From Actinomycetota bacterium (GTDB taxonomy: Bacteria; Actinomycetota; Actinomycetes; JAKEEW01), in assembly GCA_046735375.1 (NCBI GenBank), contig JBKPTD010000005.1, positions 10,132 through 74,131 on the forward strand: 64,000 nt of DNA, given 5' to 3'. The position numbers and the translations under genes are program-made. Numbering within the stretch: position 1 is the first letter of the stretch; every line of letters starts with the position of its first letter. The notes under the pieces were generated by a model. It was not told the origin of the DNA. It saw only the letters and a program-made list of their open reading frames with translations, and searched no databases. This document shows positions 8,228 to 56,809 of this stretch, one piece after another.

Positions 8228-8267
8228 GGTGTCTCCCGCCCGCATACACCCATCAAGGAGTCCTGGG

Positions 8268-9335
8268 ATGGTCGTCGTGATGGCGCCTGAGGCGTCAGAC
8301 AGCCAAATCAATGCCGTCGTCGACCGGGTCGCCGCGGCGGGCGGCGAGGCCTTCGTCTCCCGCGGAGTCGAGCGGACGATCATCGGATTGGTCGGTGACA
8401 TTGAGCGCTTCCGCGCGCTGAACCTGCGTACATTCGCCGGCGTCGCCGACGTCGTGCGCATCTCGGTCCCGTACAAGCTTGTCGCCAGAGAGCACCATCC
8501 CGACATGACGACGGTCTACGTCGGTGGCGTGCCGATCGGTCCCGACACGCTGACCCTCATCGCCGGGCCGTGCGCGGTAGAGACGCCGGAGCAGACACTC
8601 GACGCGGCGCGCATGGCCAAGGGCGCCGGCGCGGCATTGCTGCGCGGCGGCGCGTTCAAGCCCCGCACCTCGCCGTACGCCTTCCAGGGCCTGGGCGAGG
8701 CCGGCCTGCGCATCCTCTCCGAGGTGCGAGCCGAGACGGGCCTGCCCATCGTCACCGAGGTTGTCGACCCGCACGATGTCGATCTGGTGGCGTCGTACGC
8801 AGACATGCTCCAGGTCGGTACGCGGAACATGCAGAACTTCGCGCTGCTTCAGGCGGTGGGCGAGATCGGTCTGCCTGTGATGATCAAGCGCGGGATGAGC
8901 GCGACGATCGAGGAGTGGCTGATGGCGGCGGAGTACGTCGCCCGCCGCGGCAACCTGGACATCGTGTTGTGCGAGCGCGGGATCAGGACCTTCGAGACAT
9001 CCACCCGCAACACGCTGGACATCAGCGCGGTCCCCATCGCACATGGGCTATCGCACCTTCCGGTCATCGTCGACCCATCGCACAGCGGCGGAAGGCGCGA
9101 TCTGGTGCTGCCACTGGCCAGAGCCGCCATCGCCGCAGGAGCCGATGGAGTGATCGTCGACGTCCATCCACATCCGGAGTCCGCCCTATGCGACGGGCCG
9201 CAGGCGCTCGTCGACGGTGACTTGCGGGCACTGGCGCAGGCGGTCCGGCTGTTCCCGCCGCTGCTCGGCCGCGTGCCGGCGACGCTTCCGGCTGAAGCCC
9301 TATCCGCCAGCGTTGAGGAGCCCATCGGCGTGTGA
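8268..9335 (+). CDS. 3-deoxy-7-phosphoheptulonate (DAHP) synthase, class I-beta, with N-terminal ferredoxin-like regulatory domain
   Basis: KDO8PS/DAHPS I-beta core motifs are present (GPCAVE, KPRTSPY, DPSH). An N-terminal ~70-aa regulatory domain precedes them, and an AAGGAG Shine-Dalgarno sits 7 nt upstream of the ATG at 8268. Confidence 0.75.
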   Translation: MVVVMAPEASDSQINAVVDRVAAAGGEAFVSRGVERTIIGLVGDIERFRALNLRTFAGVADVVRISVPYKLVAREHHPDMTTVYVGGVPIGPDTLTLIAGPCAVETPEQTLDAARMAKGAGAALLRGGAFKPRTSPYAFQGLGEAGLRILSEVRAETGLPIVTEVVDPHDVDLVASYADMLQVGTRNMQNFALLQAVGEIGLPVMIKRGMSATIEEWLMAAEYVARRGNLDIVLCERGIRTFETSTRNTLDISAVPIAHGLSHLPVIVDPSHSGGRRDLVLPLARAAIAAGADGVIVDVHPHPESALCDGPQALVDGDLRALAQAVRLFPPLLGRVPATLPAEALSASVEEPIGV

Positions 9336-14712: not shown

Positions 14713-16236
<1,524 letters not shown>

Positions 16237-21859: not shown

Positions 21860-23110
21860 GTGGTCTTCGAGGAGGGCAGGGCGGTGCAACTGAGCGAAAC
21901 GGTCGAGATCCGGGGTCATCTGTTGGACGCGGGGACTCTGACCAAGATCCTCGACGACATCAGAGACTACGACGGCGACTATGTGATCGAGCAGTTCGAT
22001 GTCGGCAAGGACCATGACGACGAGTCCTACGCCCGGATCACGGTAAGCGCGGCCGATGACCACCTCTCCAGGCTCGTGAACAGGCTTCAAAGCCACGGTG
22101 CCAATCCCATGGATCCCAGCGAGGTGGAGATCCGCGCGGCCGACGCCGACGGTGTCTTCCCAGACGACTTTTACTCGACCACCAACCTCGAGACATTCGT
22201 CCGGTTGGGCGGCGAGTGGATCCGAGTGGAAAACCCGGAGATGGATTGCGGACTCCTGGTCGTCGACAACCGAGTGCGGACGATCCCGGTAAGCGAGGTC
22301 ACATCCGGCGACCGGATCATTTGCGGGACCAATGGGGTGCGGGTCGTACCGGTTGCAGAGGTGGAGCGCGGCGGCAGCGCATTCGAGTTCATGAATTCCG
22401 AGGTCTCGTCGGAGAAGCCGCAGGCCGTGCTTGTCCGGCAGATTGCCGACCAGATGCGGGCGGTTAAGGCCGGCGGCGGCAAGATCCTCTGGGTCGGTGG
22501 ACCTGCCGTCGTGCACACCGGCGCCGCACCGGCGATGGTCGCGCTGGTCAAGGCGGGGTTCGTCGACGTGCTCTTCGCAGGAAACGCGCTGGCCACCCAC
22601 GACATCGAGGCGGCACTGTTCGGCACCTCGCTCGGCGTCGATCTATCCCGCGGTCGCGGCGTCGAGCACGGACACGAGCACCACATCCGGGCAATCAACA
22701 AGATCCGCCGAGCCGGCTCGATCGCCGCGGCAGTCGAGAACGGCGTGCTGACCGGCGGCGTGATGCACGCGATGGTCGAGGCCGGCAAGCGGTTTGTGCT
22801 GGTGGGTTCGGTTCGTGATGACGGCCCACTGCCTGAGGTCTACACCGACGTCATCGAGGGACAGCGAGCCATGCGCGCGGAGCTGTCAGGCGTCGGGTTC
22901 GCCATCATGGTCGCCACGATGCTGCACTCGGTCGCGACCGGCAACATCCTGCCGGCGTCGATCCCACTGGTCTGCGTCGACATCAACCAAGCGACTGTCA
23001 CCAAGCTCGCCGACCGGGGCTCGGCGCAGGCGCGAGGCCTCGTCACGGATATCGGTCTCTTCCTCGAACAGCTCGCCCTCGAACTCGTCCCTGACTACCG
23101 CCACCCCTAA
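21860..23110 (+). CDS. TIGR00300-family protein (LOR/SDH conserved domain; archaeal-type ornithine cyclodeaminase / arginine dihydrolase-like)
   Basis: The N-terminus shows the family pattern (VEIRGHLLDAGTLTKILD...YARITVSA), followed by a Rossmann-like GGPAVVHTG region. The start is probably GTG at 21860; the ORF as listed begins at 21635. Confidence 0.55.
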   Translation: MVFEEGRAVQLSETVEIRGHLLDAGTLTKILDDIRDYDGDYVIEQFDVGKDHDDESYARITVSAADDHLSRLVNRLQSHGANPMDPSEVEIRAADADGVFPDDFYSTTNLETFVRLGGEWIRVENPEMDCGLLVVDNRVRTIPVSEVTSGDRIICGTNGVRVVPVAEVERGGSAFEFMNSEVSSEKPQAVLVRQIADQMRAVKAGGGKILWVGGPAVVHTGAAPAMVALVKAGFVDVLFAGNALATHDIEAALFGTSLGVDLSRGRGVEHGHEHHIRAINKIRRAGSIAAAVENGVLTGGVMHAMVEAGKRFVLVGSVRDDGPLPEVYTDVIEGQRAMRAELSGVGFAIMVATMLHSVATGNILPASIPLVCVDINQATVTKLADRGSAQARGLVTDIGLFLEQLALELVPDYRHP

Positions 23111-23111
23111 T

Positions 23112-23135
23112 CCCGACCCTCGAACGAGGGTCGGG
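23112..23135 (+). terminator. Hairpin CCCGACCCTCG-aac-CGAGGGTCGGG immediately after the stop codon
   Basis: A perfect 11-bp stem 2 nt after the TAA stop. There is no U-tract, which is typical of high-GC intrinsic terminators. Confidence 0.5.
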
Positions 23136-23493
23136 AAGGCTGCAACCCGGGGGTCACGGGGCTTGGACGAGCATGATCCTGACCTCGCCGCCAGCGGGGT
23201 GGGAGAGGGTGACGACGAGGTCAGGAGAGTCCTATCGGTGCCGGGGCGAGGAGTGTTACGGGAGGCCCTCCCGCCGTTCCACGGCGACCTTGATCCACTG
23301 GTCTAGCTGACAGGATCGGAGCTACTCAGCTCGGATCGCTGGCCATTGACCCAGACCACATCGACCGTGTTCATCGATCGCTGGACCGGGAACCGGACTA
23401 GGTCGCACCATTTGGCTGGATCTCTGTCCAATGATCGACCAGAAGTGGCCTGCTAGTCGGGATGAGTGGCCAACGAATCAGCCGCCAGGTTGT

Positions 23494-24420
23494 TTACGCG
23501 AAGCCGGAGGGAGGCGACTCGTCGGGGCCGGACTGTTCGGCCAGGAAGCGCTCGAACTCGGCGCCGAGCTCCTCGGCGGTCGGCAGCGGACCAGGAGTCG
23601 TGAGCAGATTCGTGCTCTCCCGGCCGCGGACATAGGCGTCGTACTGCTGCTCGAGCGCCGTCACCAACGCGACAGCGTCGGTGTCCCCCTTGATCCGCTC
23701 GTCGATGTCGCCCCGCAGCTGCTCGGCCGCCGCATGCAGGCCCTCGGTGGGAAGCAGGAGTCCTGTCGCCTTGCTCACCGAATTCAGCACGAGTTCGGCA
23801 GCTGCGGGATAGTCCGTCTGCGCGAGGTAATGCGGCACATGGACGGCGAAGCCGATCGCGTCCCGCCCGTTGCGGCCCAACTCGTACTCGAGGAGATGGC
23901 CTGCGCTGCCCGGAACGAGCACCCGTTGCAGCCACGGCTCATACCCAGTGATCAGCTCACGGCGGGTGGCATGAGCAGTGATGCCTGTCGGCCGCGTATG
24001 CGGAACCGCCATCGGGATCGAGTTCAGACCGACCGTCAGCCGAACCGCGAGCCGCTCGATGATTTCTTGTACGGCCGCCGTGAAGCGGCGCCAGACCAAA
24101 TCCGGCTCGGGACCGGTGAGCAGGAGGAACGGCACACCAGCGCGGTCATGCAGCAGATGGATGGCCAGGGCCGGATCCTCGTAGTTCTCCCAGTGATCTT
24201 CCATGAAGGTCATGATCGGTCGCCGGGACCGGTAGTCGAGCAGCCGATCGATGTCGAAGGTTGCCACTGGGCGGGGGTCAAGCGTGGTCGTCAGGTGCTC
24301 CGCGGCCAGCCTGGTCGAGCCGCCGGCGTCGACGAACCCGGTCATCGCTTGGATCAGAACCGGCCGGCCGAGCTCGGGCAGATCGGTAGCGAGCTCGTAG
24401 AGCTCATCAGGAGCGGGCAA
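23494..24420 (-). CDS. PAC2-family protein (proteasome assembly chaperone-like)
   Basis: Family-like motifs are present (LYEL...PVLIQAMTGFVDAGG, GSAGHLLEYEL). A TTG start at 24420 follows a GGAGG Shine-Dalgarno. Confidence 0.55.
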   Translation of the reverse strand: MPAPDELYELATDLPELGRPVLIQAMTGFVDAGGSTRLAAEHLTTTLDPRPVATFDIDRLLDYRSRRPIMTFMEDHWENYEDPALAIHLLHDRAGVPFLLLTGPEPDLVWRRFTAAVQEIIERLAVRLTVGLNSIPMAVPHTRPTGITAHATRRELITGYEPWLQRVLVPGSAGHLLEYELGRNGRDAIGFAVHVPHYLAQTDYPAAAELVLNSVSKATGLLLPTEGLHAAAEQLRGDIDERIKGDTDAVALVTALEQQYDAYVRGRESTNLLTTPGPLPTAEELGAEFERFLAEQSGPDESPPSGFA

Positions 24421-24487
24421 CAGTGACGACCTCCAAGGCGTACCGCGCAATGGTGCAACACCAGTGTGAACGCGCGAGCTCCGGCCG

Positions 24488-25347
24488 CTAGTCCCGGGGC
24501 CGCACGAGGTCCCCTCTGGCCTGCTGCGCAGGCACACGAACGGTGGCCAGGACAGGGCGATGATCGCTAGCGACATCAAGACCAGGAAGATGCTCCGGTA
24601 CGCCGCATCGGACGACCTCGGTCTGATCGGAAACGAAGATGCCGTCGATCCGCTTATAGGGGTGCTTGGCGTTGCTCGTGAATTCGCCGCCCCACGGTGC
24701 CGCGGGATAGGCGTCGCGAAGCTTGGTGGCTAGGGCCCGCCACGATTCGCCGGTGGGGCGCTCATTGATATCGCCGGCCACGATGACATGTGGCGTGCCG
24801 ACGCCGGGAAGCGAGGCGACTCGGTCCACGTGTCCGAGCACCTCGTCGACCTGCTCCCTCCGCTCTTGCGCGAGGAGGGACAGGTGGATGCTGGCGACGC
24901 ACAGTCGAGCGGTTGTCGGGACGGGTCCCTGGCCAATACCGGGAATATCGACGATGGCTACGGCCACACCGCGCTGGTGAAGGCCGGGCAGCTTGGTCAG
25001 CTCGCGGTTCTCCGCATAGACCACCTGCGTTCGCAGGCTTCCGAGGAGCAGCATGGCACCGGCGGCCCGGCCCCCGGTGAGGACGACAAGGCCGCTCTCG
25101 TGAGCCAGCCAGGCGCATTTGGTGCGCCAGCGGAAGAACCGTGGAGCCTCCTGGATGCATGCGATGTCTGGGTCACAGTCGCGGATCACCTGGAACAGTG
25201 CCTGTGTGTCGTCCCGCATCGACCGGATGTTGTACGAGAGCACGCGCAGCTCCACGGTTCCGGCCGCGGGCTCGTCGACGCTCGCCAGTGCGCTGTCGCC
25301 AGCCGTTGCCGATGTACCTGCAGGCGGGACGACCTCATCGGTCATCC
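24488..25347 (-). CDS. Endonuclease/exonuclease/phosphatase (EEP) family protein, last gene of the iol/ABC operon
   Basis: Carries EEP motifs (RVLSYNIR, CIQEA, GDINE, SDHRPV). Its start lies 25 nt after the ABC ATPase stop. Confidence 0.65.
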
Positions 25348-25371
25348 CGCCTGCAGGTTCGGGCGTCGCGG

Positions 25372-26210
25372 TCAAAGATCCTCCGCAATCGCGGCGCGGC
25401 GGAGCTCGTGCTCGAGCTGCTCGATCTCCGCGCCACCGGCCATTTGCTGGGTCAGCTCGTCGCGGGAGATGTTCGCCTTGGCGAAGTCGCCGACGCCGCG
25501 CCCGCGCTTGAGGATGATGAAGTGGTCGCCCACCGGATAGGCGTGATGCGGGTTGTGAGTGATGAAGATCACGCCGAGCCCGCGGTCGCGGGCCGCGGCG
25601 ATCCGGCCGAGCACGACCCCCGCCTGTTTGACACCCAGCGCTGAGGTCGGCTCGTCGAGAATCAGCACTCGCGCGCCGTGGTAGGCGGCTCTGGCGATGG
25701 CGACACATTGCCGCTCACCACCGGAGAGCGTTCCGACAGGCTGATCGACGTCGCGGATGTCGATGCCCATGGCAGCCATCTCCCGGCGGGCGACATCGCG
25801 CGCCATCGACACATCGAAGCGACGCATCGGACCCCCGCCTTTGGTGGGCTCGGAGCCGAGGAAGAAGTTCCGCCACACTGACATCAGCGGGATCATCGCA
25901 AGGTCCTGGTAGACCGTGGCGATGCCGCGATCGAGTGCCTCACGCGGCGAGGAGAACCGCACCGGCTCGCCATCGATGGAATACACACCCTCGTCGGGTT
26001 GGTGGACGCCAGACAAGATCTTGATCAGCGTGGACTTGCCGGCGCCGTTGTCGCCGAGGATGCAGGTCACGCTGCCCGCCCTCACCACGGCGGACACTTC
26101 GGAGAGCGCGATGACCGAACCGAAGTATTTGGAGACGCGGTCGACCTCGAGTAGCGGCGGAGCTTGGACCGGAGGGACGGTCTTTTCCTCGACCGACGGT
26201 GTGGTCATCG
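25372..26210 (-). CDS. Sugar (putative inositol) ABC transporter ATP-binding protein, single NBD
   Basis: Walker A (GDNGAGKST), signature (LSGGERQ) and Walker B (ILDEPT) motifs are present. The MTTPSV start overlaps the permease stop (ATGA). Confidence 0.8.
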
Positions 26211-27245
26211 TCGTGTCCTCTCCGCGTAGCGCCGGACAAAAGCGTTGGTCAAGGCCGCTAGCAACAGCATCACTCCGAGGAAGAACTTGAACCAGTCCGC
26301 GTCCCACCCAGCGAAGATGATGCCGCGATCGGCCATCCCGAAGATGATCGCGCCAACCGATGCCCCGATGGCGGAGCCATAGCCTCCGGTCAGCAGGCAG
26401 CCGCCGATGACCGCTGCGATGATGAAGATGAACTCCTGACCGATACCGGTGTTGGCCTGCACCGACGTCAGTCGGACCGCATTGATCGTGCCGACCAGCC
26501 ACGCCGCGCCGGCGGTCGTCATGAACAGTGCGATCTTGGTCCGTGAAGCGGGCACTCCTACCGATCTCGCGGCCTGGGCGTTCCCGCCCACCGCGAAGAT
26601 CCAGTTCCCCGGCCTGGTCCGCATGAGTATCCACGTCGCGAGGGCAGTGATCGCGATCCACCACAGAATCGCAACCCGGAAATCGGCACCGAAGATGTGG
26701 AAGGTGCGGGCGAAGACCGAGTGCGCAGCGTCGTAACCGTCTGCCCGGCCTAGCCCGCTCACTTGCACGGTGTCGGTCAGTGCCTTGGTAACCCCGAGGT
26801 TGAGACCCTGCAGCATAAGGAACGTACCCAGCGTCACGATAAAGCTGGGCAAGCCGGTCCTGATCACGACCACGCCGTTGAATGCGCCGACAACCAGCGC
26901 GATGGCAAGCGCCGCGGCCATGGCGTACCAGACGTTCCAGCCGTACTTGGTGGAAAGGATGGCAATGGTCAGACCGGTGGTGCCGGTCATGACACCAGCC
27001 GAGATGTCGAACTCGCCGCCGATCATGAGCAGTCCGACGGCAACGGCCATGATGCCGTAGGTCGAGGCGATGTCGAGCCAGTTCGAGATGCCCGCGGCCG
27101 AGCTGAAGACCGACGACTGAGCGGCGAAGAAGATGAAGACGACGATCGCGCCGATGACCGAGGCAAGTTCAGGGCGAACGAGGAGGCGCCGTAGCAGGCC
27201 GACGTGTGCAACCCGCTCGTCGACCGGTGGTGCAGCAGTAGTCAT
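26205..27245 (-). CDS. Sugar ABC transporter permease (RbsC/CUT2-like)
   Basis: About 10 TM helices and a permease signature typical of monosaccharide ABC importers. Confidence 0.75.
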
Positions 27246-27363
27246 GGACGTCCCTCCCGCGGGAGATCAAGCACGAGCGCCCGTCCCCCCGATCAAGGAG
27301 CTCTGCCGTCTCGGCCTGAGGCGACCGTTGCTCCTTGATCGGCGAGGACGCTAGGCGGCGAGG

Positions 27364-28340
27364 CTAGCGGGTGCCCTGCTGAGCCAGCTGCGCGACCGTG
27401 TCGGCGTTGTCCTTCGTGACGAAGCCGGGACCGGTGAGCACGGGCTGACCGCCGCCCACGGTGTTGAGGTTGTTCTTGTACAGGTAGAGGAACACGATCG
27501 GCAGGTAGCCCTGCAGATACTGCTGCTGGTCGACGGCGAAGAGGATCTCGCCGTTCTTGATCGCGTCCACGACGTCGGCCGAGAGGTCGAAGGTTGCGAG
27601 CTTCGCCTTCGAGCTCGAGTCCTTGATCGCATCGCGGGCACTGATGGCGACACCTGGGTTGAGCGTCAGGACGCCGTCGATCGACTTGTCCGACTGCAGC
27701 TTGGCCGAGATCTTGGATGACGCGTCGGCCAGGTTGGTCCCGTCCACCTGCAGGTTCTCCACACTGCCGCCGAGAGTCGCCTTGGCACCGTTGCACCGCT
27801 GCTCAAGCCCGACGTTGCCGGCTTCGTGCACGACGCACAGGAGCTTCGTGACGCCCGCTTCCTTCATTTTCTCGCCCGCACCCTGACCGGCGATGTCCTC
27901 GGACTGGCCGACGTGCGTGATCGCGCCGAACTCCTTGGACCGGTCCTGGCCGGAGTTGATGGTGATGACGGGAATACCTGCCTGCACCGCCTTCTCGATC
28001 GACTCCTTGAGCGCGTCCGGGTTGGCCATCGACACGACGAGGCCGTCGACCTTCTGGGCCACCGCTGCGTCGATGAGCTGTGACTGCTGGGCCGGGTCGC
28101 CGTTTCCGTTGTAGTTCACCTTGATGCCGTACTGCTTGCCGGCCGCTTCCGCGCCGTTCTTTACGACATCCCAGAATGCGTCGCCGGCTCCCGCGTGGAC
28201 GACCACCGCGATCGTCATGTTCGCGGCCTGGCCCGCGTTGGTCTGCTGAGCCTGGCCGTTGTCGTCGTCACCCGAACAGGCGGCGAAGACGAGCGGAGCC
28301 GCAAGGGCGAGGGCGAGCAACCGTGTCCTAGTTCTCATCT
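27364..28340 (-). CDS. Periplasmic sugar-binding lipoprotein (putative myo-inositol binding, PBP type I)
   Basis: Lipoprotein signal peptide (MRTRTRLLALALAAPLVFAAC) followed by an RbsB-like binding fold. Confidence 0.7.
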
Positions 28341-28370
28341 GGTGGTCCCTTCTGGCGTCCTTGCCTTGCC

Positions 28371-30235
<1,865 letters not shown>

Positions 30236-30239
<4 letters not shown>

Positions 30240-31135
30240 TCACCACCCTCCCGACGAGGTGAGCGATCCTGTCCTCTGGCCACCGTGGCGTCGGGAATCG
30301 CCGCGCTCGTCATCGGCAGCCGCGTATCGACCTGCGCCGGGGTCCAGCTGTCGCGAATCCAGGTGTGGCACGGATCGTCACGGAACGCCATCGTCCGCTG
30401 TTCGGCCGGTCCTGCGAGGACATTCAGGTAGTACATGTCGTAGCCGGGCGCAGCCATCGACGGACCGTGATAGCCATGCGGGACGAGGACCACATCGCCG
30501 CTGCGCACCTCGCGCAAGACATCGATCGGTTTTCCCGGCGAGCCGTACACCCGCTGCATCCCGAAGCCGTGCTCGCCGGCGATCTCAAAGTAGTAGATCT
30601 CCTCGAGGATCGCCTCATCGTCACCGGCTGTGTCGTGCTTGTGCGGTGGATAACTCGACCAGTTCCCGCCGGGTGTCAGCACCTCGACGGCGGTGAGCTT
30701 CACCGTCTCGAATGCGCCGGGGGCGCAGAAGTTGTTGACCTGGCGGCTGGCCGGGCCGGCACCGCGCAGCTCGACGGGGACGTCCTCGGCCTTGCCGTAC
30801 CGCGGCTCGAGCTGCCTCTCGCACCGGGCGGTGGGCAGCGCATAGCGGCCGCCGAGCGGTGCGGTTACCGATGCGGCTGCGCCCATCGGCAGGTAGGCGA
30901 AGTCGGTGACGCGCGCGAAGACCGAGGCGCGTCCCTCGAGCTCGATGATCACACCGCCGCACTCGATCCTGGCCGGTCCTCCGGCCAGCGGCAGAACTAG
31001 CAGCTCGTCGTCGCCCGGCGGCAACTCGACCGAGCCCTTAGGCGGAAGGTCGAGCATTTGGAGCCCGGCGTAGCCCCAGCCCGCCGCCGCCGGCGTCACC
31101 AGTGTTGTCAGCATCAAGCTACCGGCCGCAGTCAT
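30236..31135 (-). CDS. iolB: 5-deoxy-glucuronate isomerase (IolB)
   Basis: Cupin-type IolB motifs (EEIYYFE, HGYHGP). Its ATG at 31135 overlaps the upstream stop, and its stop overlaps the iolD start. Confidence 0.75.
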
Positions 31136-32166
31136 ACCGCCTGCGCCCCTCGAGCCGCGATATCGGCAGCTTCGGAACCCTGGGAACCGCCGGGAGTGCC
31201 CCCGGCCAGAAGCGAGACGGCTCGGTCGACGGCGGCGTCCACGTCGTCGTCCGGCGGGTAGAGCAAGGCGCGCCCAGCGACGATGCCGCGGACGGTCGGA
31301 AGAGATAGCGCCGTCGTCCACCGTTCGAACATCTCGTCGGCCTCGTCCTCGGACTCGCCGGCGTCTCCGCCGAGGAGGAGCACAGGCAGCGTCGACGCTG
31401 CGAGCACTCGTTCCATATCGTCGACGACGGGAAGCTTGAGCCAGCTGTAGGCGGAGGTCGTACCGAGCCCCGACGCAACGGCAATCGACCTCGCCACGGC
31501 ATCGGCGGTGAGGTCGTGGCGGACTCGTCCAGCTGAGACGACCGACGCCCGGCGGCCGCCAACTGGGAGTCCACCTTTCGTCGAACTCGCACGCGGGGCC
31601 GGCGATGCGCCTTCCCCGCTGGCCCAGAACGGCTCGACCATGGCCATCAGCCGGTGGGCGGCGAGGTCGCTGATCGCATCAGCGCACGACTCGAGCGTGC
31701 GAACGGTGGCGGGATCGGCAAGGTCGATGCGAAGCAGCATCTTCCCGCCATCGAAGCCCATCGCTGCGAGGGAAGCCGCGGTATAACCGGTGAACCGGTC
31801 GTCCAGCTCGAACACCGAACCTGCGAGCCCGCCCCGGTTCATCGAGCCAACCACCAGCTTGTCGTCGAGCGCCTTGAGAATCAGCAGATCTTCCAGGATG
31901 TCGGCGGTGGCGAGCACCCCGTCGACGCCGGGGCGGTTCAGGGCCGCGACCAGCCGGTTCAGCAGGTCCAGGCGGTCGGCCATCGCCCACGGGCGGCCGC
32001 CTGCACCCAACGACGCCCGCGCCGGGTGGTCGGCAGCGATGATCATGAGACTGCCGGTGGCACTGACGAGTTCTGGCCGCCGGCGGCGGGCGACCGCCGC
32101 CTCGGCGATCGCCTCGGGGTGCCGCGCGCGAACATCCGCGAGAGCACGGGCCTGCCGTTCATCCAT
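31132..32166 (-). CDS. DUF2090 class-I aldolase-like protein (putative 5-dehydro-2-deoxyphosphogluconate aldolase, IolJ-equivalent)
   Basis: It sits between iolC and iolB, where actinobacterial iol clusters carry the DUF2090 aldolase (often fused to IolC). Its start overlaps the iolC stop (ATGGATGA). Confidence 0.6.
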   Translation of the reverse strand: MDERQARALADVRARHPEAIAEAAVARRRRPELVSATGSLMIIAADHPARASLGAGGRPWAMADRLDLLNRLVAALNRPGVDGVLATADILEDLLILKALDDKLVVGSMNRGGLAGSVFELDDRFTGYTAASLAAMGFDGGKMLLRIDLADPATVRTLESCADAISDLAAHRLMAMVEPFWASGEGASPAPRASSTKGGLPVGGRRASVVSAGRVRHDLTADAVARSIAVASGLGTTSAYSWLKLPVVDDMERVLAASTLPVLLLGGDAGESEDEADEMFERWTTALSLPTVRGIVAGRALLYPPDDDVDAAVDRAVSLLAGGTPGGSQGSEAADIAARGAQAV

Positions 32167-33175
32167 CGCGCTCGCCAGCCCCGGATAGCAGCTCGAGGAC
32201 CTCATGTTCGTACGGCATCGCCGCCGAGCAGGCAATCTTGGTCGCGACGATCGCCCCCGCCGCGTTCGCAAACCGAATGGTCCGCTCGAGTTCCCAGCCG
32301 CGAATCAGGCCGAGGCAGAGGGCTCCGCCAAAAGCGTCACCGGCGCCGAGGCCGTTGACGACCTCGACGGGGATCGAAGGCACCTCGACCTTCTCGACCG
32401 CGGTTCTGGCCAGCACCCCGTCCGGCCCCTGCTTCACTACAGCGAGCGCGACGCCGCGGTCGAGCAGTGCCTCCGCCGCGGCGGGTGGATCCGCGACCCC
32501 CACCGCGGTCTCGCACTCGTCGAGATTCCCCACCGCCACTGTCGCATGCGGCAGGGCGTCCGCGAGCGCCGCCCGGGCCGCATCACGACTCGGCCAGAAC
32601 ATCGGCCGGTAATCCAGATCGAGGATGGTCGCCGTCCGGGCGCCGACGGCGGCGCCGTCCGACCTGGCGCGCAGCGCCGCGAGCGTGGCGCTGCGGCTGG
32701 GCTCTTGGCAAAGCCCGGTGCCGGTCACCCACAGGATGTCGGCCTGTGCCAACGCATCGAGGTCGAGCTCGTCGGTGCTGATCTGGAGATCGGGGGCAGT
32801 CGGAAACCGGTAGAAGTAGAGCGGGAAGTCGTCAGGAGGCATGATTGCGCAGAATGTCACCGGTGTCGGAAGTCCGTCGACGGCGCTCACCCATCTGTCG
32901 TCGACCCCGAAGTCCCGCAACGCCGCATGGATATATGTCCCGAAGGGGTCGGCACCCGTTCTCGTAACCACTGCAGTGGTCAGCCCGAGCCGCGCCGCCG
33001 CGACCGCCACATTGGTCGCGCTCCCTCCGACATAGCGGGTGAAGTGCTCTACCTGATCGAGCGGCAGACCGACCTGGTCGGGGTAAACGTCGACACCGAT
33101 CCGGCCGATGGTCACCACGTCGAAGGCTGGCACCCCGGTCCCCGTCATCGACTGCCGGGCGGTCATGGCTGCCAC
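32159..33175 (-). CDS. iolC: 5-dehydro-2-deoxygluconokinase, PfkB family (IolC)
   Basis: PfkB motifs are present (VVTIGRIGVDVY, GGSATNVAVA, NGLGAGDAFGGA). Confidence 0.75.
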   Translation of the reverse strand: MAAMTARQSMTGTGVPAFDVVTIGRIGVDVYPDQVGLPLDQVEHFTRYVGGSATNVAVAAARLGLTTAVVTRTGADPFGTYIHAALRDFGVDDRWVSAVDGLPTPVTFCAIMPPDDFPLYFYRFPTAPDLQISTDELDLDALAQADILWVTGTGLCQEPSRSATLAALRARSDGAAVGARTATILDLDYRPMFWPSRDAARAALADALPHATVAVGNLDECETAVGVADPPAAAEALLDRGVALAVVKQGPDGVLARTAVEKVEVPSIPVEVVNGLGAGDAFGGALCLGLIRGWELERTIRFANAAGAIVATKIACSAAMPYEHEVLELLSGAGERDG

Positions 33176-34124
33176 TCGCCGGTGTCGCAGCCCAAGGGGG
33201 CGGCCTTCTCAAGCCCGGCCGCGCCAAGGTCCCGGTCCCGCCGCGGCGACCCGAGCTGGCCAAGGAAGTCGAGGCTGGCCTGGACGTCAGCAACTGGACC
33301 CGCCCGCTGGCGCGGTTCGGATTCGAGCCGTTGATCCTGCTCGATGACATACCAGCCCTGATATCCGGCGGACTCGAGGGCACGGACCGTCGCCGCTATG
33401 TGGGCCGCTCCTGTGCCGAGGCGAACGTACATGCCGCTACGGACGCCCTCCGCGTACCCGAGATCGCCTTGGCGGACCTTACCGGCGAGACCGGGTTCGG
33501 CGTCCTTGAGGTGGACGTGGGCGATCCGATCAGCAGTAGCGCCCGCAAACGACGCCGGTGAGCCGCCCCCGACGAAGTAGTGGCCCGTGTCGAGGCAGAG
33601 CGGGATCGCTGCGCCGTCGAGGACGCGCTGGACGTCACCCGGTCTTTCCACGGCAGTGCCCATATGCGGATGGAGGACGGCCTTCACCCCGTGATCGTCC
33701 GCCGCGCCGGCCGCGTGATCAAGAGTCTCCAGCAGCCGCCGCCACTGCGCGCCGTCGAGCACGGTGTGGCCGTCGTAGCCCTCACGCCCGTACTCCGCCG
33801 CGAGGACCAGCAGGGTCGCGCCTGCTGTGGCGAATGCATCGGCCACCCGCGCGACCACTGGGACGGGGTCGACGCGGGCGTCGTGCAGGACGACCGGAAC
33901 GAACCCACCGATCCCGGTGATTCCGTATCCGCGCAGCAACTGGTTGCGGGCGGCCGGGTCGTGAGGCAGGAAACCGTCGGGACCGAACTCCATGGCCGAT
34001 AGCCCGAGCTCGCGTATCTCGGCGAGCACCCGCTGCCGGCTCATCTGGTGACCCCAGCCGGGGACCTCGCTGACTCCCCAGGAAATCGGCGCGGCGGCCA
34101 CCCGTGCCCGGATTCCTATCATGT
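33163..34124 (-). CDS. iolE: Inosose dehydratase / sugar-phosphate isomerase-epimerase TIM-barrel (IolE-like)
   Basis: Xylose-isomerase-like TIM-barrel fold (HVHLKD, metal-binding His/Asp/Glu). Its position between iolG and iolC fits IolE, but IolI cannot be excluded. The ORF's N-terminal extension to 34626 looks spurious. Confidence 0.6.
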
Positions 34125-34198
34125 GGCCCTGCTTTGGGCCGTCGCCGGCCGGTGTGACGGCGACCTGATCCGCCGAGCGGATGACGCAGCCGTGGGGG

Positions 34199-35200
34199 TC
34201 ATCCGTCGATCTCCGCGATCTCGACCCGGCGCGCTTGCCGGCGTGACAGCTCTGCCGCCTCTGCAACGAGCAGTGCCGCAAGGGCGTCGTCGGCTGAGCA
34301 GGGGCTGTCGATCGACCCGCGGGCATAGTCGAGGAAGGCTGACAGCTCGGCCTCGTAGGCGCCGGCGAACCGGTCAAGGAATGTCCGGTACGGAGCGTGG
34401 CGAGGCCATGGAACGTCCACGTCGGCGGACCGCAGCGGACTGCGGTCGTTGAGGCCGACGGCCAGCGTCCCGCGTGTGCCGGCGAGTTCCAGCCGGACAT
34501 CGCAGCCCGCGCCGTTGTAGCGGGTGCCGGTGACAACGGCGAGCGATCCGTCGTCCATGACGAGGATGGCGGCCGTCGTGTCGACATCACCGGCGTCCCT
34601 GATGAACGCGGCCCCCGTGTTCGCACCTACCGCCTGCACCGACGAGACCTCACGACCGGTGACGAAGCGGATCGCATCAAAGTCGTGGATGTGCATGTCC
34701 CGGAACTGCCCGCCGGAGGTCGGTATGTAGTCCGGATGCGGCGGTGCAGGATCGGCCGTTATGGCTCGCAGGGTGTGGACCTGGCCAAGGGCACCGCCCT
34801 GGTAGTCGCGGCGGGCGGCCCGGTAACCAGCGTCGAATCGACGTTGGAAACCGACCTGGAGCGGGACCTGAGCCGCGGAGACCTCCGCCATGACCGAGCG
34901 CGTGGTGGCGAGGTCCAGCGCGATGGGCTTCTCGCAGAAAACCGGGACCCTGGCATCGACGGCGGCCCGAATAAGGCCGGCGTGAGTCGCGGTCGGGGTC
35001 GCAATGACCACGCCGTCCAGCGGACCGCTCGCAGCCGCGGCAAAGTCGTCCACCTGGCGAGCGCCGATCTTCCCCGCGAGTGCCTTGGCCCTGGCGAGGT
35101 CGGCATCGGCCACCAGCACCTTGGACACAGCCGAATGCCTGGTTAGCAGAGCGGCGTGGAACGCGCCTATTCGGCCCGCGCCGAGCACCACTATCCGCAT
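34199..35200 (-). CDS. iolG: myo-inositol 2-dehydrogenase, Gfo/Idh/MocA family (IolG)
   Basis: Begins MRIVVLGAGRIGAFHA with the Rossmann, EKP and FQRRFD motifs. It is the first gene of the operon. Confidence 0.8.
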   Translation of the reverse strand: MRIVVLGAGRIGAFHAALLTRHSAVSKVLVADADLARAKALAGKIGARQVDDFAAAASGPLDGVVIATPTATHAGLIRAAVDARVPVFCEKPIALDLATTRSVMAEVSAAQVPLQVGFQRRFDAGYRAARRDYQGGALGQVHTLRAITADPAPPHPDYIPTSGGQFRDMHIHDFDAIRFVTGREVSSVQAVGANTGAAFIRDAGDVDTTAAILVMDDGSLAVVTGTRYNGAGCDVRLELAGTRGTLAVGLNDRSPLRSADVDVPWPRHAPYRTFLDRFAGAYEAELSAFLDYARGSIDSPCSADDALAALLVAEAAELSRRQARRVEIAEIDG

Positions 35201-35271
35201 CTCGGCCTCCGCGCTTGGCAGCGCTGGGTGGGTGTGTCCCGCTCGCCTCGCCAGGGTTTCTAGTCGTCGAA

Positions 35272-35303
35272 CTTTGTCCTGTCAATGGTTTGTACTGACA
35301 AAG
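35272..35303 (+). promoter_or_regulatory. Candidate IolR (GntR/HutC) operator: CTTTGTC-N17-GACAAAG with an internal TGTACTGACA
   Basis: A 7-bp inverted repeat in the 84-bp divergent iolG/iolR intergenic region, resembling HutC-family GT-N-AC operators. Confidence 0.45.
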
Positions 35304-36064
35304 TGAGTAAAGTGTTAGCCGTGGTCGAGGCACCAGTCTCCATTGCGGTGGACCGCAGCAGCCCGGTGCCGCTCTACTTCCAGGTTGCGGAACAACTCGA
35401 ACGGGCGATAGAGAACGGCTCACTCCCGGCCGGCGTCCGCCTGGGCAACGAGGTACAGCTCGCCGAGCACTACGGCCTGTCGCGCCCGACGATGCGGCGG
35501 GCGATCCAGTATCTGGTCGACAAGGGGCTCTTGGTTCGTAAGCGAGGGGTCGGCACCCAGGTCCTGCATACCAAGGTCAGGCGGCCGATCGAGCTCACGA
35601 GCCTCTACGACGATCTCATCGGTGCCGGACAAGCGCCGACGACGCAGGTGCTGCAGAACACAGTCGTCTCGGCTGACGCCACGGTGGCGGTTGTCCTCGG
35701 CGTCGAGCCCGAGTCACCGGTGGTGTTCCTGGAGCGCCTGCGCTCGGCCGGTGACGAACCGCTGGCGCTGATGCGGAACTACCTGCCGGCAGATCTCATG
35801 GAGTTGACGACGGCTGCCCTCGAGTCCAACGGTCTCTACCAACTGCTGCGGGCCGCCGGCATCAATCCACGGGTCGCGCTGCAGTCGATCGGGGCCCGTG
35901 CGGCGCGCGGCGCGGAGGCACGTTTGCTCACCGAGCCGCGTGGTGCCCCGCTGCTCACCATGACCAGGACCACGTACGACGACTCCGGCAAGGCTGTCGA
36001 GTTCGGATCCCATGTCTACCGAGCCTCGCGGTACGCCTTCGAGCACACTCTCGTCGGCCGTTAG
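35285..36064 (+). CDS. iolR: GntR-family (HutC subfamily, UTRA domain) transcriptional regulator, putative iol repressor
   Basis: Winged HTH (LPAGVRLGNEVQLAEHYGLSRPTMRRAIQYLVDKGLL) followed by a UTRA effector domain. It is divergent from iolG. Confidence 0.7.
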   Translation: MVCTDKVSKVLAVVEAPVSIAVDRSSPVPLYFQVAEQLERAIENGSLPAGVRLGNEVQLAEHYGLSRPTMRRAIQYLVDKGLLVRKRGVGTQVLHTKVRRPIELTSLYDDLIGAGQAPTTQVLQNTVVSADATVAVVLGVEPESPVVFLERLRSAGDEPLALMRNYLPADLMELTTAALESNGLYQLLRAAGINPRVALQSIGARAARGAEARLLTEPRGAPLLTMTRTTYDDSGKAVEFGSHVYRASRYAFEHTLVGR

Positions 36065-36133
36065 GACCCTGCGGCCGGGCGACGCATTGCCCCATGCCGA
36101 GCATGAGGGGGACCCTTCCTCCATCCCGCTAGA

Positions 36134-36182
36134 CATGAAGGGCACCCTAGCCCGATGGGTCGGGGTGAGGGTGCCCTTCATG
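36134..36182. repeat. REP-like palindromic element copy 3 (ATGAAGGGCACCCTAGCCC-gatgggtc-GGGGTGAGGGTGCCCTTCAT)
   Basis: A near-perfect inverted repeat matching the 6531 and 52979 copies. It lies between convergent iolR and glk. Confidence 0.8.
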
Positions 36183-36237
36183 CGCAATGGGTTGGGCGTG
36201 AGACTCCCACGACTTCGTCCGCAACCCGCGGCCCGAC

Positions 36238-36292
36238 GCATCCCCAGGCAGGAGCTATGGCGGGGCATCCCCAGGCAGGAGCTATTGGCGGG
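36238..36292. repeat. 27-bp tandem direct duplication (CATCCCCAGGCAGGAGCTAT(T)GGCGGG x2) spanning the glk stop codon
   Basis: Two adjacent near-identical units seen directly in the sequence; the second unit overlaps the last codons and stop of glk. Confidence 0.7.
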
Positions 36293-37247
36293 CAAGGTCG
36301 GCAGCGCCGACGACTCCGGCCTCCGGACCGAGTTCGGCGATCTTTATCTCAGCCTCCGGGCGGTAGCCGCGGCCGACGAGGCCGCGGTGGAATGACTCAC
36401 GGGCGGGGCTGAGCAGAAGATCGCCGGCATCGGACACCCCTCCGCCGATGATGAAGCAGCCAGGGTCGAAAGCCGCGGCCAGCGACGCGAGCCCTACGCC
36501 GAGCCAGTGGCCGACGTCCTCGAGCAGTTCGATCGATGTCGGATCGCCGTCCTTCGCGGCCTGGGTGATCAAGGGGCCGGTGATGGCCGAGACATCCCCA
36601 CCGGCGAGGTCCAGGAGGGCGTTGGCGAGCGGCGCGCCGGATTCGGCAAGCTCCCGGCCCTCGCGCACGAGAGCATTTCCGCTCGCATATTGCTCCCAGC
36701 AGCCCTTGTTGCCACAGCCGCAGCGGACCCCACCCGGCACGACCTGCATGTGACCGAACTCTCCGGCAATGCCCCACCGACCGCGATAGAGCTGGCCGTC
36801 CAGCACGATTCCGCCGCCGATGCCGGTTCCCACGGTGACACAGACCACGTGATCCTGCCCTCGGCCCGCGCCGAATCGGGTCTCCCCCCAGGCAGCGGCG
36901 TTCGCGTCGTTCTCGACCATGATCGGCAGGCCGACACGCTTCTCCAGCTCGGCCTTGATCGGCTCTTCTCGCCAGGCAAGGTTGGGTGCGAAAAGAACCG
37001 TCCCCCGCTGCTGGTCGATGAAGCCTGCGGCGCCGATGCCTGCGGCCGCGATCCCCGGCCGGGCTCCCGCGAGGTCATTGATGGCGTCAGCGATCGTGTC
37101 CTCGGTCGCCTTCGGGTCGTGGGCAGGCGTCTCGCGCTTGTCAGAGACCAAGATCCGGCCAGACTCGTCCACTATCCCGGCCGCGACCTTCGTTCCCCCG
37201 ATGTCCACACCGATCGTGAGGGCCATCGAGTCGTCAGCCCTCGTCAC
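36282..37247 (-). CDS. glk: ROK-family glucokinase
   Basis: ROK motifs (GVDIGGTK, the CGCGNKGCWE zinc motif). Its order with the upstream small gene matches Streptomyces glkA-SCO2127. Confidence 0.85.
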   Translation of the reverse strand: MTRADDSMALTIGVDIGGTKVAAGIVDESGRILVSDKRETPAHDPKATEDTIADAINDLAGARPGIAAAGIGAAGFIDQQRGTVLFAPNLAWREEPIKAELEKRVGLPIMVENDANAAAWGETRFGAGRGQDHVVCVTVGTGIGGGIVLDGQLYRGRWGIAGEFGHMQVVPGGVRCGCGNKGCWEQYASGNALVREGRELAESGAPLANALLDLAGGDVSAITGPLITQAAKDGDPTSIELLEDVGHWLGVGLASLAAAFDPGCFIIGGGVSDAGDLLLSPARESFHRGLVGRGYRPEAEIKIAELGPEAGVVGAADLARQ

Positions 37248-37575
37248 CGGTTATGTCGATTCGCGCCGACGACCCGTTGGTTCGACCGGCCGAACCACGT
37301 CCGGTTGCCGCATCCGGGGCGACGCCGCCGCCGGCCGGGCCTTCGAGGAACGCCTTGGCCGCCGCGGCGAGCGAGAACCCAGCCACGGCGAGGTGCCGAA
37401 CCACGTCCGGATTGGCGTCTCGAAGGTTGCGAATCAGCAGGCAGATCGGGCAGAGCTGGCACTCCTCGGCATCGGTGGCGATATGGTCACCGACCCAGCT
37501 CGTCAGCGATGCGATCAGCTTCGCGGCCTCCTCGGCCGCGGTTCCCACAGCCTCCTCGCCCGAACGGCTACTCAT
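37234..37575 (-). CDS. SCO2127-like small protein (DUF5304-like), upstream partner of glucokinase
   Basis: 113-aa acidic protein with a CQLCPICLL motif. Its stop overlaps the glk start, as in the Streptomyces sco2127-glkA operon. Confidence 0.55.
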   Translation of the reverse strand: MSSRSGEEAVGTAAEEAAKLIASLTSWVGDHIATDAEECQLCPICLLIRNLRDANPDVVRHLAVAGFSLAAAAKAFLEGPAGGGVAPDAATGRGSAGRTNGSSARIDITGDEG

Positions 37576-37605: not shown

Positions 37606-38904
37606 TCAGTCGCGAGTACGTCCTCGTGCTTCGGCAGCCACATCGCCGCTCCTGTCTGGTTCATGCGCAGAGCGAGGAGAATGGGTGGATCGACGACCCA
37701 CACTCTTCCCTGCCTCCTCCGGTAGGCCGAAGCGGATCGACAGCCGACCCGCAACGAGCTCGGCGCCGGCGACCTCGCAGCGCCATAGTGCCGCGGGCAG
37801 CGCAAGCAGCCTGCGGCTATCCCCGACGGTCAGAACGAGCTCGTTTCCCCTTCGCATCAGGTCCATCTCGCGCCGCTCAGCGAACGGGAGTGCGAGCGAG
37901 AGTACATAACCGGACCTTTCCCGCGACACTCGAACAGGATCATCCACGGTTGGCTCCGCGAACGGATCAACGGCGGAGCGTATCCCGTCGCCGTACGCCG
38001 CCGCGGCGAATGCCGCAAGCTCCTCGAGCCCGACCGGCTCTGCCGCACGATATGGCGACCGGTAGACAGGAAGCGGTGCGAACGACGCATCGACCTCCTC
38101 GAGTTGTTCGGCCTGGGCGGCTATCCATCCGCGCCGCCAAGCGTCGGCACCACCGGCCGGGAACACCCTGTTGGCGATCACGGCGTCTACGCGATAGCCG
38201 TACAGCGAGAGAGACGTCAGCGTCCGTCGCGCCTCGGCCACCACGACGGATTCCGGCGTGAGGACCAGCCGAACCGATGACCTTGGCCCGGTGAGGACCT
38301 CCCGCACGGCTGCCAGCTCGGCGTGCATGCGTTCGATCGCGTCGAAGACGACCTCGTGCGGCATCGGAACTCCGGCTGCCCGCCGCAGCACAGGGCGGAA
38401 GGTCTTGATCAGGCGCCGCTCAAGTGGGAACACCCGCTCCATGTACCAGCCGAGCGCCTCGGGAAGGGCGAGCAGCCGAAGGGTCTCCCCCGTCGGTGCG
38501 CAGTCGACTACGACAAGGTCCCACCTCCCCGAGCGGACCTGGTCACGAACCTCGAGGAGCGCGAGCACCTCGTCAGCGCCGGGCAGGACCGTGAGCTCCG
38601 CGGCCTCGATCGGATCGACGCCCGCGGCGTCGAGGACCGAGAGTAAGTAGCGCTGGACGTCTCCCCACGACCGCTCCAGCCGTCCGCGGGCGTCGACGTG
38701 CTGGACATAGAGCCCGACGTCGACCTGCGTTGGGTGCTTGCCGACCGCGTGATCGAAGGCATCGGCCAGCGAGTGCGCCGGGTCGGTCGATAGAACCAGT
38801 GTCTTCAGCCCGCGGTTCGCGGCAAGGGTTGCCGTCCCCGCGGCTGCCGTCGTCTTGCCGACGCCTCCTTTGCCGGTGAACAGAAGGACGCGCGGCGCCG
38901 TCAC
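37606..38904 (-). CDS. ArsA/Get3-family ATPase (Rv2184c-like)
   Basis: P-loop (FTGKGGVGKTT) and DTAPTG-like switch regions, with a duplicated anion-transporting ATPase architecture. Confidence 0.75.
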   Translation of the reverse strand: MTAPRVLLFTGKGGVGKTTAAAGTATLAANRGLKTLVLSTDPAHSLADAFDHAVGKHPTQVDVGLYVQHVDARGRLERSWGDVQRYLLSVLDAAGVDPIEAAELTVLPGADEVLALLEVRDQVRSGRWDLVVVDCAPTGETLRLLALPEALGWYMERVFPLERRLIKTFRPVLRRAAGVPMPHEVVFDAIERMHAELAAVREVLTGPRSSVRLVLTPESVVVAEARRTLTSLSLYGYRVDAVIANRVFPAGGADAWRRGWIAAQAEQLEEVDASFAPLPVYRSPYRAAEPVGLEELAAFAAAAYGDGIRSAVDPFAEPTVDDPVRVSRERSGYVLSLALPFAERREMDLMRRGNELVLTVGDSRRLLALPAALWRCEVAGAELVAGRLSIRFGLPEEAGKSVGRRSTHSPRSAHEPDRSGDVAAEARGRTRD

Positions 38905-55045: not shown

Positions 55046-55054
55046 CCCTTCTTC

Positions 55055-55205
55055 CTCCCACCGCCGACCGGGTGAGCTGACGGGTTCGGGCGGGGAAGAT
55101 CGGCCCTACGGTGCGTCGCATCCAGGCGTCACACCGATTCACCCCTGGGATCCACTGGGTCCCCGGCTCCGCTCGCAGCCGGTTGAGAATTCGCCGGCGA
55201 GGTCG
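55055..55205 (-). ncRNA. ydaO (c-di-AMP) riboswitch, copy A
   Basis: The minus strand reads ...CCGGGGACCC...CAGGGGUGAAUCGGUGUGACGCCUGGAUGCGACGCACCGUAGGGCCGAUCUUCCCCGCCCGAACCCGUCAGCUCACCCGG..., matching the conserved ydaO blocks. It sits immediately 5' of a purine-rich Shine-Dalgarno and the NlpC/P60 start. Confidence 0.7.
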
Positions 55206-55497
55206 CAGATTAGGCGGGACGTCCGCCCTCATCCCCGGTGGGATGAGCGTCCGTAGCGGACGTCTGGCGCGAAAACATATCGGTGATCAGGTACGCGGAG
55301 CAAGCACCGGAGCGGTCCGCTTCATGACAGTCCAACGATGCTGCACGCGGCAGACGGGCACGGCAATCTGAGCGAGCGGCGCGGCGGCCAGGATCATCGT
55401 GACAGCCGCAATCCATGGAGCGAGGCGCCGGCCGGGGCTCGGCGGAGGTCCCGGCCGTAACGCCTCACGTATCAAAGATGGCGTCCGAGGCGACGTG

Positions 55498-56520: not shown

Positions 56521-56539
56521 CAGAGCGGCACCCCTCTTC

Positions 56540-56690: not shown

Positions 56691-56809
56691 GAGGTCTCCG
56701 CCGACCACTCCGGTTGAGCAGCCGTCGGCGCGGACACCTGGTGCGGAACCATACTCATGATCCGCTCGCGGAGCAATGCGAACCGCCGTTTCTTGTGGAA
56801 AACGCCTGG

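Follow-up and report, generated by a model that had tools for sequence, protein, structure and literature searches.

The 64 kb window analyzed here (the whole stretch of DNA studied, from contig JBKPTD010000005.1 of an Actinomycetota bacterium, with 64-70% GC throughout) carries a myo-inositol catabolic operon with its own ATP-binding cassette (ABC) importer. The last gene of the series, on the same strand, encodes a phosphoesterase of the EEP superfamily, here simply called EEP. The original prediction read this final position as a sign that the enzyme releases inositol from inositol phosphates or phosphoinositides for import and catabolism. Here, we describe the operon, the surroundings of the EEP gene in other Actinobacteria, and the class of the encoded protein. 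Together, these make it quite probable that an ordinary inositol operon was inserted between a glucokinase gene (glk) and EEP, and that the phosphoesterase is an inherited neighbor and not an inositol-phosphate scavenger.

Genes of the inositol operon

Ten successive minus-strand genes occupy positions 24488-35200 (Table 1). Open reading frame (ORF) calls, translations, and Pfam and NCBIfam identities agree with the order proposed earlier, from iolG through an iolE-like gene, iolC, a Cgl0159-like aldolase gene, iolB, iolD, and the genes for a substrate-binding protein (SBP), a permease and an ATPase to EEP. They also support the reading of the locus as an operon for myo-inositol catabolism that is coupled to an ABC importer. 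The upstream end first given for the operon (35303) lies ~100 nt beyond the iolG start, inside a divergent, iolR-like regulator gene.

Table 1. Features of the inositol operon and its flanks in the window (positions counted from the first nucleotide of the window)
Feature	Positions	Strand	Evidence
PAC2-family gene, downstream of EEP	23494-24390	-	PF09754 3e-62
EEP-superfamily phosphoesterase, catalytic residues intact	24488-25345	-	PF03372 6.1e-13
GC-rich hairpin (19 bp, 5-nt loop) enclosing ATG 25345	25316-25358	-	Inverted repeat I24, 95% complementary
ABC ATPase, one nucleotide-binding domain, 278 aa	25372-26208	-	ABC_tran 2.7e-30
ABC permease	26205-27245	-	BPD_transp_2 1.8e-47
Lipoprotein SBP of CUT2-type sugar/polyol ABC importer	27364-28338	-	Peripla_BP_4 8.8e-45
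iolD, 3D-trihydroxycyclohexane-1,2-dione (THcHDO) acylhydrolase, thiamine pyrophosphate (TPP) enzyme	28371-30239	-	TIGR04377 927 bits (cut-off 715)
iolB, 5-deoxy-glucuronate isomerase	30236-31135	-	TIGR04378 289 bits (cut-off 205)
Cgl0159-like protein, candidate 5-dehydro-2-deoxyphosphogluconate (DKGP) aldolase (IolJ role)	31132-32166	-	PF22649 2.3e-114, 381 bits
iolC, 5-dehydro-2-deoxygluconokinase	32159-33175	-	TIGR04382 367 bits (cut-off 300)
iolE-like xylose-isomerase-type TIM barrel, probable 2-keto-myo-inositol dehydratase	33163-34122	-	PF01261 2.3e-24
iolG-like Gfo/Idh/MocA oxidoreductase, probable myo-inositol 2-dehydrogenase	34199-35200	-	Pfam GFO_IDH_MocA N- and C-terminal domains
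iolR-iolG intergenic region (84 bp), candidate promoter/operator	35201-35284	.	Read from sequence; function inferred
GntR/UTRA (HutC-type) regulator, probable IolR-like repressor, divergent	35285-36064	+	Pfam UTRA 1.7e-36, GntR 1.3e-14
ROK-family glucokinase (glk), upstream flank of the iol block	36282-37247	-	ROK 8.9e-84
ArsA-like ATPase gene beyond glk	37606-38904	-	

The products of iolC, iolB and iolD pass their NCBIfam equivalog cut-offs, while those of iolG and the iolE-like gene fall short, yet are clear family members. IolG aligns over its full length with TIGR04380 (2.9e-90), at 302.5 bits against a cut-off of 355. The iolE-like product reaches 145.6 bits (2.1e-42) with TIGR04379, whose cut-off is 290 bits; because it shares the TIM-barrel family PF01261 but misses the equivalog cut-off, 'iolE-like' is the right label. 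The aldolase had been assigned to DUF2090, for which no match is reported; Pfam places it with Cgl0159-like proteins, and the position of its gene makes it a candidate for the IolJ role.

No aldehyde-dehydrogenase signature, the mark of iolA, occurs in the six frames of the window, and no Aldedh domain was found among the long ORFs tested. This agrees with the absence of iolA noted earlier and means that 'complete', the word first used for the operon, was an overstatement: within the window, the pathway lacks its malonate-semialdehyde dehydrogenase (IolA). In a survey of inositol catabolic clusters, which were detected in 7,384 species, iolA does not count among the core genes, and both iolA and iolJ were frequently located outside the iol clusters (PMC9430895). 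The locus fits the IolCatGC definition of this survey, with iolB, iolC and iolD above their equivalog cut-offs and an iolE-like gene. According to the same source, iol-positive species make up 48% of the actinobacterial phylum, and 65% of iol-positive Actinobacteria have the gene order D-B-C-E, of which the order in the window (E-C-B-D) is the reverse. The locus is an ordinary actinobacterial myo-inositol utilization operon with the commonest core order, coupled to an ABC importer.

The genes are tightly packed, and the junction sequences confirm the start/stop overlaps described before, with one refinement. If iolC starts at GTG 33175, it overlaps the iolE-like gene by 13 nt; a start at ATG 33166 gives an ATGA overlap with the iolE stop, as at other junctions. 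The latter is the start called in two relatives, loci L081 (a call of 335 aa) and L086, and is probably the true one. The iolC and aldolase genes overlap by 8 nt (ATGGATGA), and ATGA overlaps join aldolase to iolB, iolB to iolD, and permease to ATPase.

The iolR-iolG intergenic region is locally AT-rich and contains a near-repeat (TTTGTCCTGTCAA / TTTGTACTGACAA) with the flanks CTTTGTC...GACAAAG. The true start of the divergent regulator gene may lie a few codons downstream of the called one. In Corynebacterium glutamicum, the corresponding cluster comprises iolR / iolC-iolJ(Cgl0159)-iolA-iolB-iolD-iolE-iolG. The operon resembles clusters of this type in encoding IolG, IolE, IolD, IolB, IolC and a Cgl0159-type aldolase together with a GntR-type IolR. 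It differs from them in that iolA is missing from the window, iolG and iolE score under the NCBIfam thresholds, and uptake relies on a CUT2-type ABC importer with a single-domain ATPase instead of the major facilitator superfamily (MFS) carrier IolT.

The SBP has an N-terminus (MRTRTRLLALALAAPLVFAAC) of the lipoprotein type, with a signal and a lipobox (LVFAAC). Its top NCBIfam match is the rhizopine (inosamine) SBP NF052284, at 266 bits under a cut-off of 420. The ATPase aligns only to the first half of the ~500-aa CUT2 ATPase profiles, and the ATPases of relatives are equal in size. Inositol ABC importers of the IbpA/IatA/IatP type are known from Caulobacter and Sinorhizobium. The importer of the window is like these in combining a Peripla_BP_4 SBP, a BPD_transp_2 permease and an ABC ATPase encoded beside iol genes; unlike them and the rhizopine systems, it has a lipoprotein SBP, as expected in a Gram-positive organism, and a half-size ATPase. 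The SBP and permease genes are 118 nt apart (27246-27363), and this gap carries a 13-bp stem (CCGATCAAGGAGC / GCTCCTTGATCGG) whose fold is not significantly more stable than those of shuffled sequences (z -1.96). In a Sporichthyaceae metagenome-assembled genome (MAG; locus L083, 5365-7754), the permease call is short, at 237 aa, and the ATPase is broken into pieces of 124 aa and 131 aa, while EEP is intact; this points to a decaying importer or else to faulty assembly.

EEP orthologs lie mostly beside a glucokinase gene

EEP homologs number in the thousands. The nearest ones (76-94% identity) are metagenomic, and those with names come from Sporichthyaceae, Acidothermaceae and Streptomyces. One genome per species was scanned, giving >595 matching stretches, from which the best 80 EEP loci (47-57% EEP identity) were kept with 10-kb flanks and searched with the window proteins to count neighbors. 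A ROK glucokinase gene lies directly upstream of EEP, on the same strand, in 75 of the 80 loci. The gap between the glk and EEP high-scoring segment pairs (HSPs) is 14-436 nt in 74 of these 75 and 1,631 nt in the other; loci without glk upstream include L002, L008 and L069. An ArsA-like gene precedes the glucokinase gene in 74/80 loci, and downstream of EEP follow genes for an alpha/beta-hydrolase (76/80), a PlsC-like acyltransferase (77/80) and pfkA (62/80). Were EEP a member of the inositol system, iol or inositol-transport genes would be expected to accompany it across lineages; iol and ABC genes precede it in 1/80 loci (the Sporichthyaceae MAG), as against 75/80 for glk. On a non-Streptomyces contig, ROK is likewise followed by EEP after 51 nt. 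In P0020, a 344-aa protein from a 57-kb ENA contig, the gene call fuses the C-terminal part of ROK to EEP via an Arg/Pro/Gly-rich linker resembling the product of frame-shifted read-through; the fusion is probably an artefact, yet it confirms that ROK and EEP are adjacent.

The genes of this conserved neighborhood recur in the window in unchanged order (ArsA-like, glk, EEP, hydrolase, acyltransferase, pfkA and 3-deoxy-D-arabino-heptulosonate 7-phosphate (DAHP) synthase genes), with a segment of ~10.9 kb separating glk from EEP. This segment comprises everything from iolR through the ATPase gene. Since EEP follows glk directly in other Actinobacteria, we infer that the iol block is the insertion, a direction that comes from the comparison of present-day gene orders. 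EEP at the end of the operon would then be an inherited core gene, whose position tells nothing about inositol. Sequence divergence fits vertical descent as well: relative to Streptomyces orthologs, EEP (47-57% identity) has diverged to a similar extent as glk (52-61%). The iol-ABC-EEP arrangement was found only in the clade of the window, with EEP identities of 57% (L001/L083), 76% (the P0008 contig) and 87-94% (L081 and L086-L088).

Other insertions have occurred around the gene. On an unrelated actinobacterial contig (L084, 7001-10684), TadE/Tad pilus genes lie between the ROK glucokinase and EEP genes, so that at least two insertions are known at the glk/EEP junction, the Tad genes there and the iol block in the window. 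On the downstream side, the genes of the window are, in order, PAC2, ArgZ-like, one for a protein without a Pfam match, alpha/beta-hydrolase, PlsC-like acyltransferase, a DUF1028 protein, pfkA and class-II DAHP synthase. The PAC2 gene between EEP and the ArgZ-like gene is found in L081, L086, L087 and L088 but not in L083 or the P0008 contig, and is a second lineage-specific insertion adjoining EEP. L081 (8880-10530) has an additional 208-aa ORF between the EEP and ArgZ-like genes.

Little around the iol block points to mobile DNA: a search showed no tRNA and no long bracketing direct repeats, only hairpins and a 27-nt duplication. The latter (GCATCCCCAGGCAGGAGCTATGGCGGG, two tandem copies, 89% identical; 36238-36291) straddles the glucokinase stop at the edge of the block and may be a rearrangement scar. 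The iolR-like and glucokinase genes converge, and the inverted repeat that lies between them (36121-36195), whose 15-bp core is perfect (CATGAAGGGCACCCT / AGGGTGCCCTTCATG), is probably a bidirectional terminator-like element.

A predicted cytoplasmic phosphoesterase

The four motifs originally read in the EEP protein (RVLSYNIR, CIQEA, GDINE and SDHRPV) are all present. The generic model PF03372 is its sole match in Pfam, and together with the catalytic Asn, Glu, Asp-x-Asn, Asp and Asp-His it places the protein in the superfamily. Residues N39, E66, D192, N194, D234, D261 and H262 are invariant among 22 homologs, across which a family-specific motif, QEAPRF-RW, is conserved as well. The gene is under purifying selection, with a ratio of nonsynonymous to synonymous substitutions (dN/dS) of 0.16 relative to L081, within the range of its neighbors (0.05-0.24). 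The protein has no signal peptide, membrane anchor or hydrophobic N-terminus; its first 34 residues have an acidic composition with much Ala, Pro and Gly. In 10 of the 22 aligned family members, the N-terminus begins 5-6 residues ahead of the first beta-strand. With no signal peptide and such short family N-termini, an extracellular scavenging role upstream of the importer is unlikely.

Searching PDB sequences with a profile of the family returned 3g6s (4e-13), 4ruw, TDP2, nocturnin, 3teb and 3l1w; sphingomyelinase C scored 0.021, and no inositol polyphosphate 5-phosphatase (INPP5) was matched. An AlphaFold model (predicted local distance difference test, pLDDT, 85.8) was compared with solved structures. 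The highest scores fell to 3g6s (26.5), 3mpr (26.1) and 3l1w (25.1), followed by CNOT6L (23.1), 4ruw (23.0), human neutral sphingomyelinase (22.6), nocturnin (22.1), and TDP2 and ANGEL2 (21.4). Lower scores were obtained with bacterial sphingomyelinase C (19.7), ExoIII (18.9) and the INPP5 family (15.4-18.5). Foldseek placed 3g6s, 3mpr, TDP2, 3l1w, 4ruw, the mannosyl-6-phosphatase BT3783, nocturnin and ANGEL2 at the top. Judged by the model, the nearest neighbors in fold are uncharacterized bacterial EEPs, along with enzymes whose substrates are sugar- or ribose-phosphate esters. Sequence identity with EEP is only 18-22% for 3g6s (Bacteroides vulgatus BVU_0621), 3l1w (Enterococcus faecalis), 3mpr and BT3783 (4c1r), and within this group BT3783 alone has a known substrate. 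Unlike them, the actinobacterial family has the QEAPRF-RW motif and the glucokinase-linked context.

These results bear directly on the role first proposed, in which EEP is a dedicated operon member working outside the cell, where it frees myo-inositol from inositol phosphates or (lyso)phosphoinositides so that the ABC importer can take it up for catabolism. Speaking for it, the gene is the last on the same strand, no more than 26 nt after the ATPase gene; this adjacency is retained in relatives down to 57% identity; and the superfamily does contain INPP5 enzymes and sphingomyelinases. The INPP5 enzymes (synaptojanin IPP5C 1i9z, INPP5B 3mtc, INPP5E 2xsw and SHIP2) share with EEP the fold and the catalytic framework of Asn, Glu, Asp and His. 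However, few members of the superfamily are more distant from it in the predicted fold, no INPP5-type Pfam model matches, and neither sequence models nor the closest structures put EEP in the INPP5/IPPc clade. Against it also stand the missing export signal, the constant glucokinase partner of the orthologs, a conserved hairpin that separates the ATPase gene from EEP (see below), and the literature: the word 'phosphatase' is absent from the main text of the inositol-cluster survey (PMC9430895). Synteny, predicted localization and fold classification thus all contradict the release of inositol suggested by the position of the gene, and we regard this role as extremely improbable.

Two further classes can be weighed with the same data. 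EEP might be a phospholipid phosphodiesterase (sphingomyelinase- or phospholipase-C-like) that acts in membrane-lipid turnover with the PlsC-like acyltransferase and the lysophospholipase-like alpha/beta-hydrolase. Both partners are encoded downstream of EEP in most of the 80 loci, and human neutral sphingomyelinase is among the better-scoring folds; EEP shows neither the similarity to sphingomyelinase C nor the export signal by which the sphingomyelinase clade would be recognized. We consider a lipid substrate unlikely. Alternatively, EEP could be a nucleic-acid-end or nucleotide enzyme of the TDP2, CCR4, nocturnin or ANGEL type, i.e. a 3'/5'-end phosphodiesterase, a deadenylase or an NADP(H) 2'-phosphatase. 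Such enzymes recur in both the profile and the fold searches. Nevertheless, the top neighbors are uncharacterized bacterial EEPs together with 3mpr, whose Foldseek rank is close to that of the mannose-6-phosphatase BT3783; the protein falls far under the cut-offs of the ExoIII/AP endonuclease equivalogs TIGR00195 and TIGR00633; and it has no DNA- or RNA-binding accessory domain. This type of activity is a tentative alternative, rather unlikely on balance. Of the three clades named beforehand (INPP5, sphingomyelinase and nuclease), EEP therefore belongs neither to the first, nor convincingly to the second, nor cleanly to the third. It is best described as a predicted cytoplasmic, catalytically competent, metal-dependent phosphoesterase, and our best guess for its substrate is a small sugar- or nucleotide-phosphate ester, or a nucleic-acid end.

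The junction between the ATPase and EEP genes

Three start codons come into question for EEP. With ATG 25345, the gap to the ATPase gene is 26 nt. TTG 25375 is preceded by GGAGG, a Shine-Dalgarno sequence, overlaps the ATPase stop (TTGA) and is the start called in relatives. GTG 25255 gives the family-typical N-terminus (x-ELRVLSYN). The 40 codons between the TTG and GTG positions evolve almost neutrally: 40/40/71% of their columns vary at the three codon positions, against 13/8/48% in the domain, the excess at third positions has p = 0.075, and the five sequences compared are free of indels.

The hairpin around ATG 25345 (Table 1) is strong, the surrounding 96 nt having a minimum free energy (MFE) of -56.5 kcal/mol (z -6.4). 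It is kept in four relatives, where three compensatory pairs have changed on both sides, and 95.8% of its alignment cells are paired; sliding the partners by 1-3 columns lowers this to 23-52%. It has no U-tract. We consider it a candidate terminator, attenuator, stabilizer of the mRNA end or translational occluder; it probably terminates or attenuates iol-ABC transcription, or else hides the EEP start. A consensus promoter and terminator scan of 23000-37500 is uninformative for a high-GC organism, the sites being no commoner than in shuffled sequence, and it placed none at the ATPase/EEP junction.

In other genomes, a strong stem-loop before the EEP gene is a recurrent feature. At least 27 genomes among loci L004-L079 have a GC-rich hairpin of 13-26 pairs between glkA and EEP, ~115-170 nt upstream of the EEP core and often built on GCCCGCCGCG...CGCGGCGGGC; this one is probably the glkA terminator. 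L083 has a 19-nt inverted repeat (GATCGCGGTTTTCATGATC / GATCATGAAAACGGCGATC) before the likely EEP start.

The compact junction raises the question of whether EEP acquired a link with inositol after the insertion. In a general form, the insertion would have put EEP under inositol-inducible read-through and given it an intracellular, inositol-linked job, such as dephosphorylating an inositol phosphate or a phosphorylated by-product of the pathway; we find this very improbable. In the more specific form of a secondary co-option, transcription from the iol promoter would run on into EEP, an ancestrally unrelated gene, whose product would act intracellularly on a phosphate ester derived from inositol (inositol monophosphate or a phosphorylated side product). 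The tight spacing, with possible TTGA coupling after GGAGG, would suit this, as would the purifying selection on EEP and the loop insertion (PGIGQGPVPTT) and N-terminal extension that the clade of the window has as its own. On the other hand, the family-invariant residues and the QEAPRF-RW motif are unchanged, which means that the chemistry and the core of the pocket are conserved; the hairpin encloses the ATG start; and in L083 the ABC genes look truncated or split next to an intact EEP. We hold co-option of this kind to be very unlikely.

Other features of the window

Two cyclic di-AMP (c-di-AMP; ydaO-type) riboswitch aptamers lie on the minus strand at 55047-55209 and 56532-56697, with 67 and 74 bits against an Rfam gathering threshold of 38. 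The first of them immediately precedes the gene for an NlpC/P60 cell-wall hydrolase (54032-55045, minus strand). There are also genes for two DAHP synthases in the window, a class I enzyme with a ferredoxin-like N-terminal domain (8229-9335, plus strand) and a class II enzyme (14713-16161, minus strand).

Probable function and history of the locus

The most likely working of the locus is as follows. Without inositol, the GntR/UTRA IolR-like regulator would repress the divergent iolG promoter. With inositol, one minus-strand transcript would encode IolG, the IolE-like protein, IolC, the Cgl0159-type aldolase, IolB, IolD and the importer subunits. The lipoprotein-anchored SBP, the permease and a homodimeric ATPase would take up inositol, which IolG, the IolE-like protein, IolD, IolB, IolC and the Cgl0159-type aldolase would convert to dihydroxyacetone phosphate (DHAP) and malonate semialdehyde, and an IolA encoded elsewhere in the genome would finish the pathway. 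EEP would have come to stand at the tail of the operon through the insertion of the ~10.9 kb block ahead of a vertically inherited gene.

Several points weigh against this account. The 80-locus sample is mostly Streptomyces. The iol-EEP arrangement persists in relatives with 57% to 94% EEP identity, in which EEP is under purifying selection, and such persistence leaves time enough for a secondary functional link. Inositol phosphate is, biochemically, a possible EEP substrate. Furthermore, with a short ATPase/EEP gap (26 nt, or the GGAGG-preceded TTGA overlap), a hairpin without a U-tract and no canonical terminator in the consensus scan, transcription may quite possibly continue from the iol promoter into EEP, whose expression in the lineage of the window could be inositol-inducible.

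The insertion reading amounts to a negative result: the last place in an operon had been taken as a statement about function, yet synteny puts the EEP gene there before the iol block arrived. This keeps the unsupported annotation 'inositol-phosphate scavenging phosphatase' from spreading. The operon in itself adds little, being one more actinobacterial inositol cluster with an ABC importer. A minor lead comes from the gene behind it. The EEP family is widespread in Actinobacteria, uncharacterized and nearly always encoded straight after glk, and a literature search for an EEP gene beside glkA found nothing; its members are predicted to be cytoplasmic phosphoesterases.

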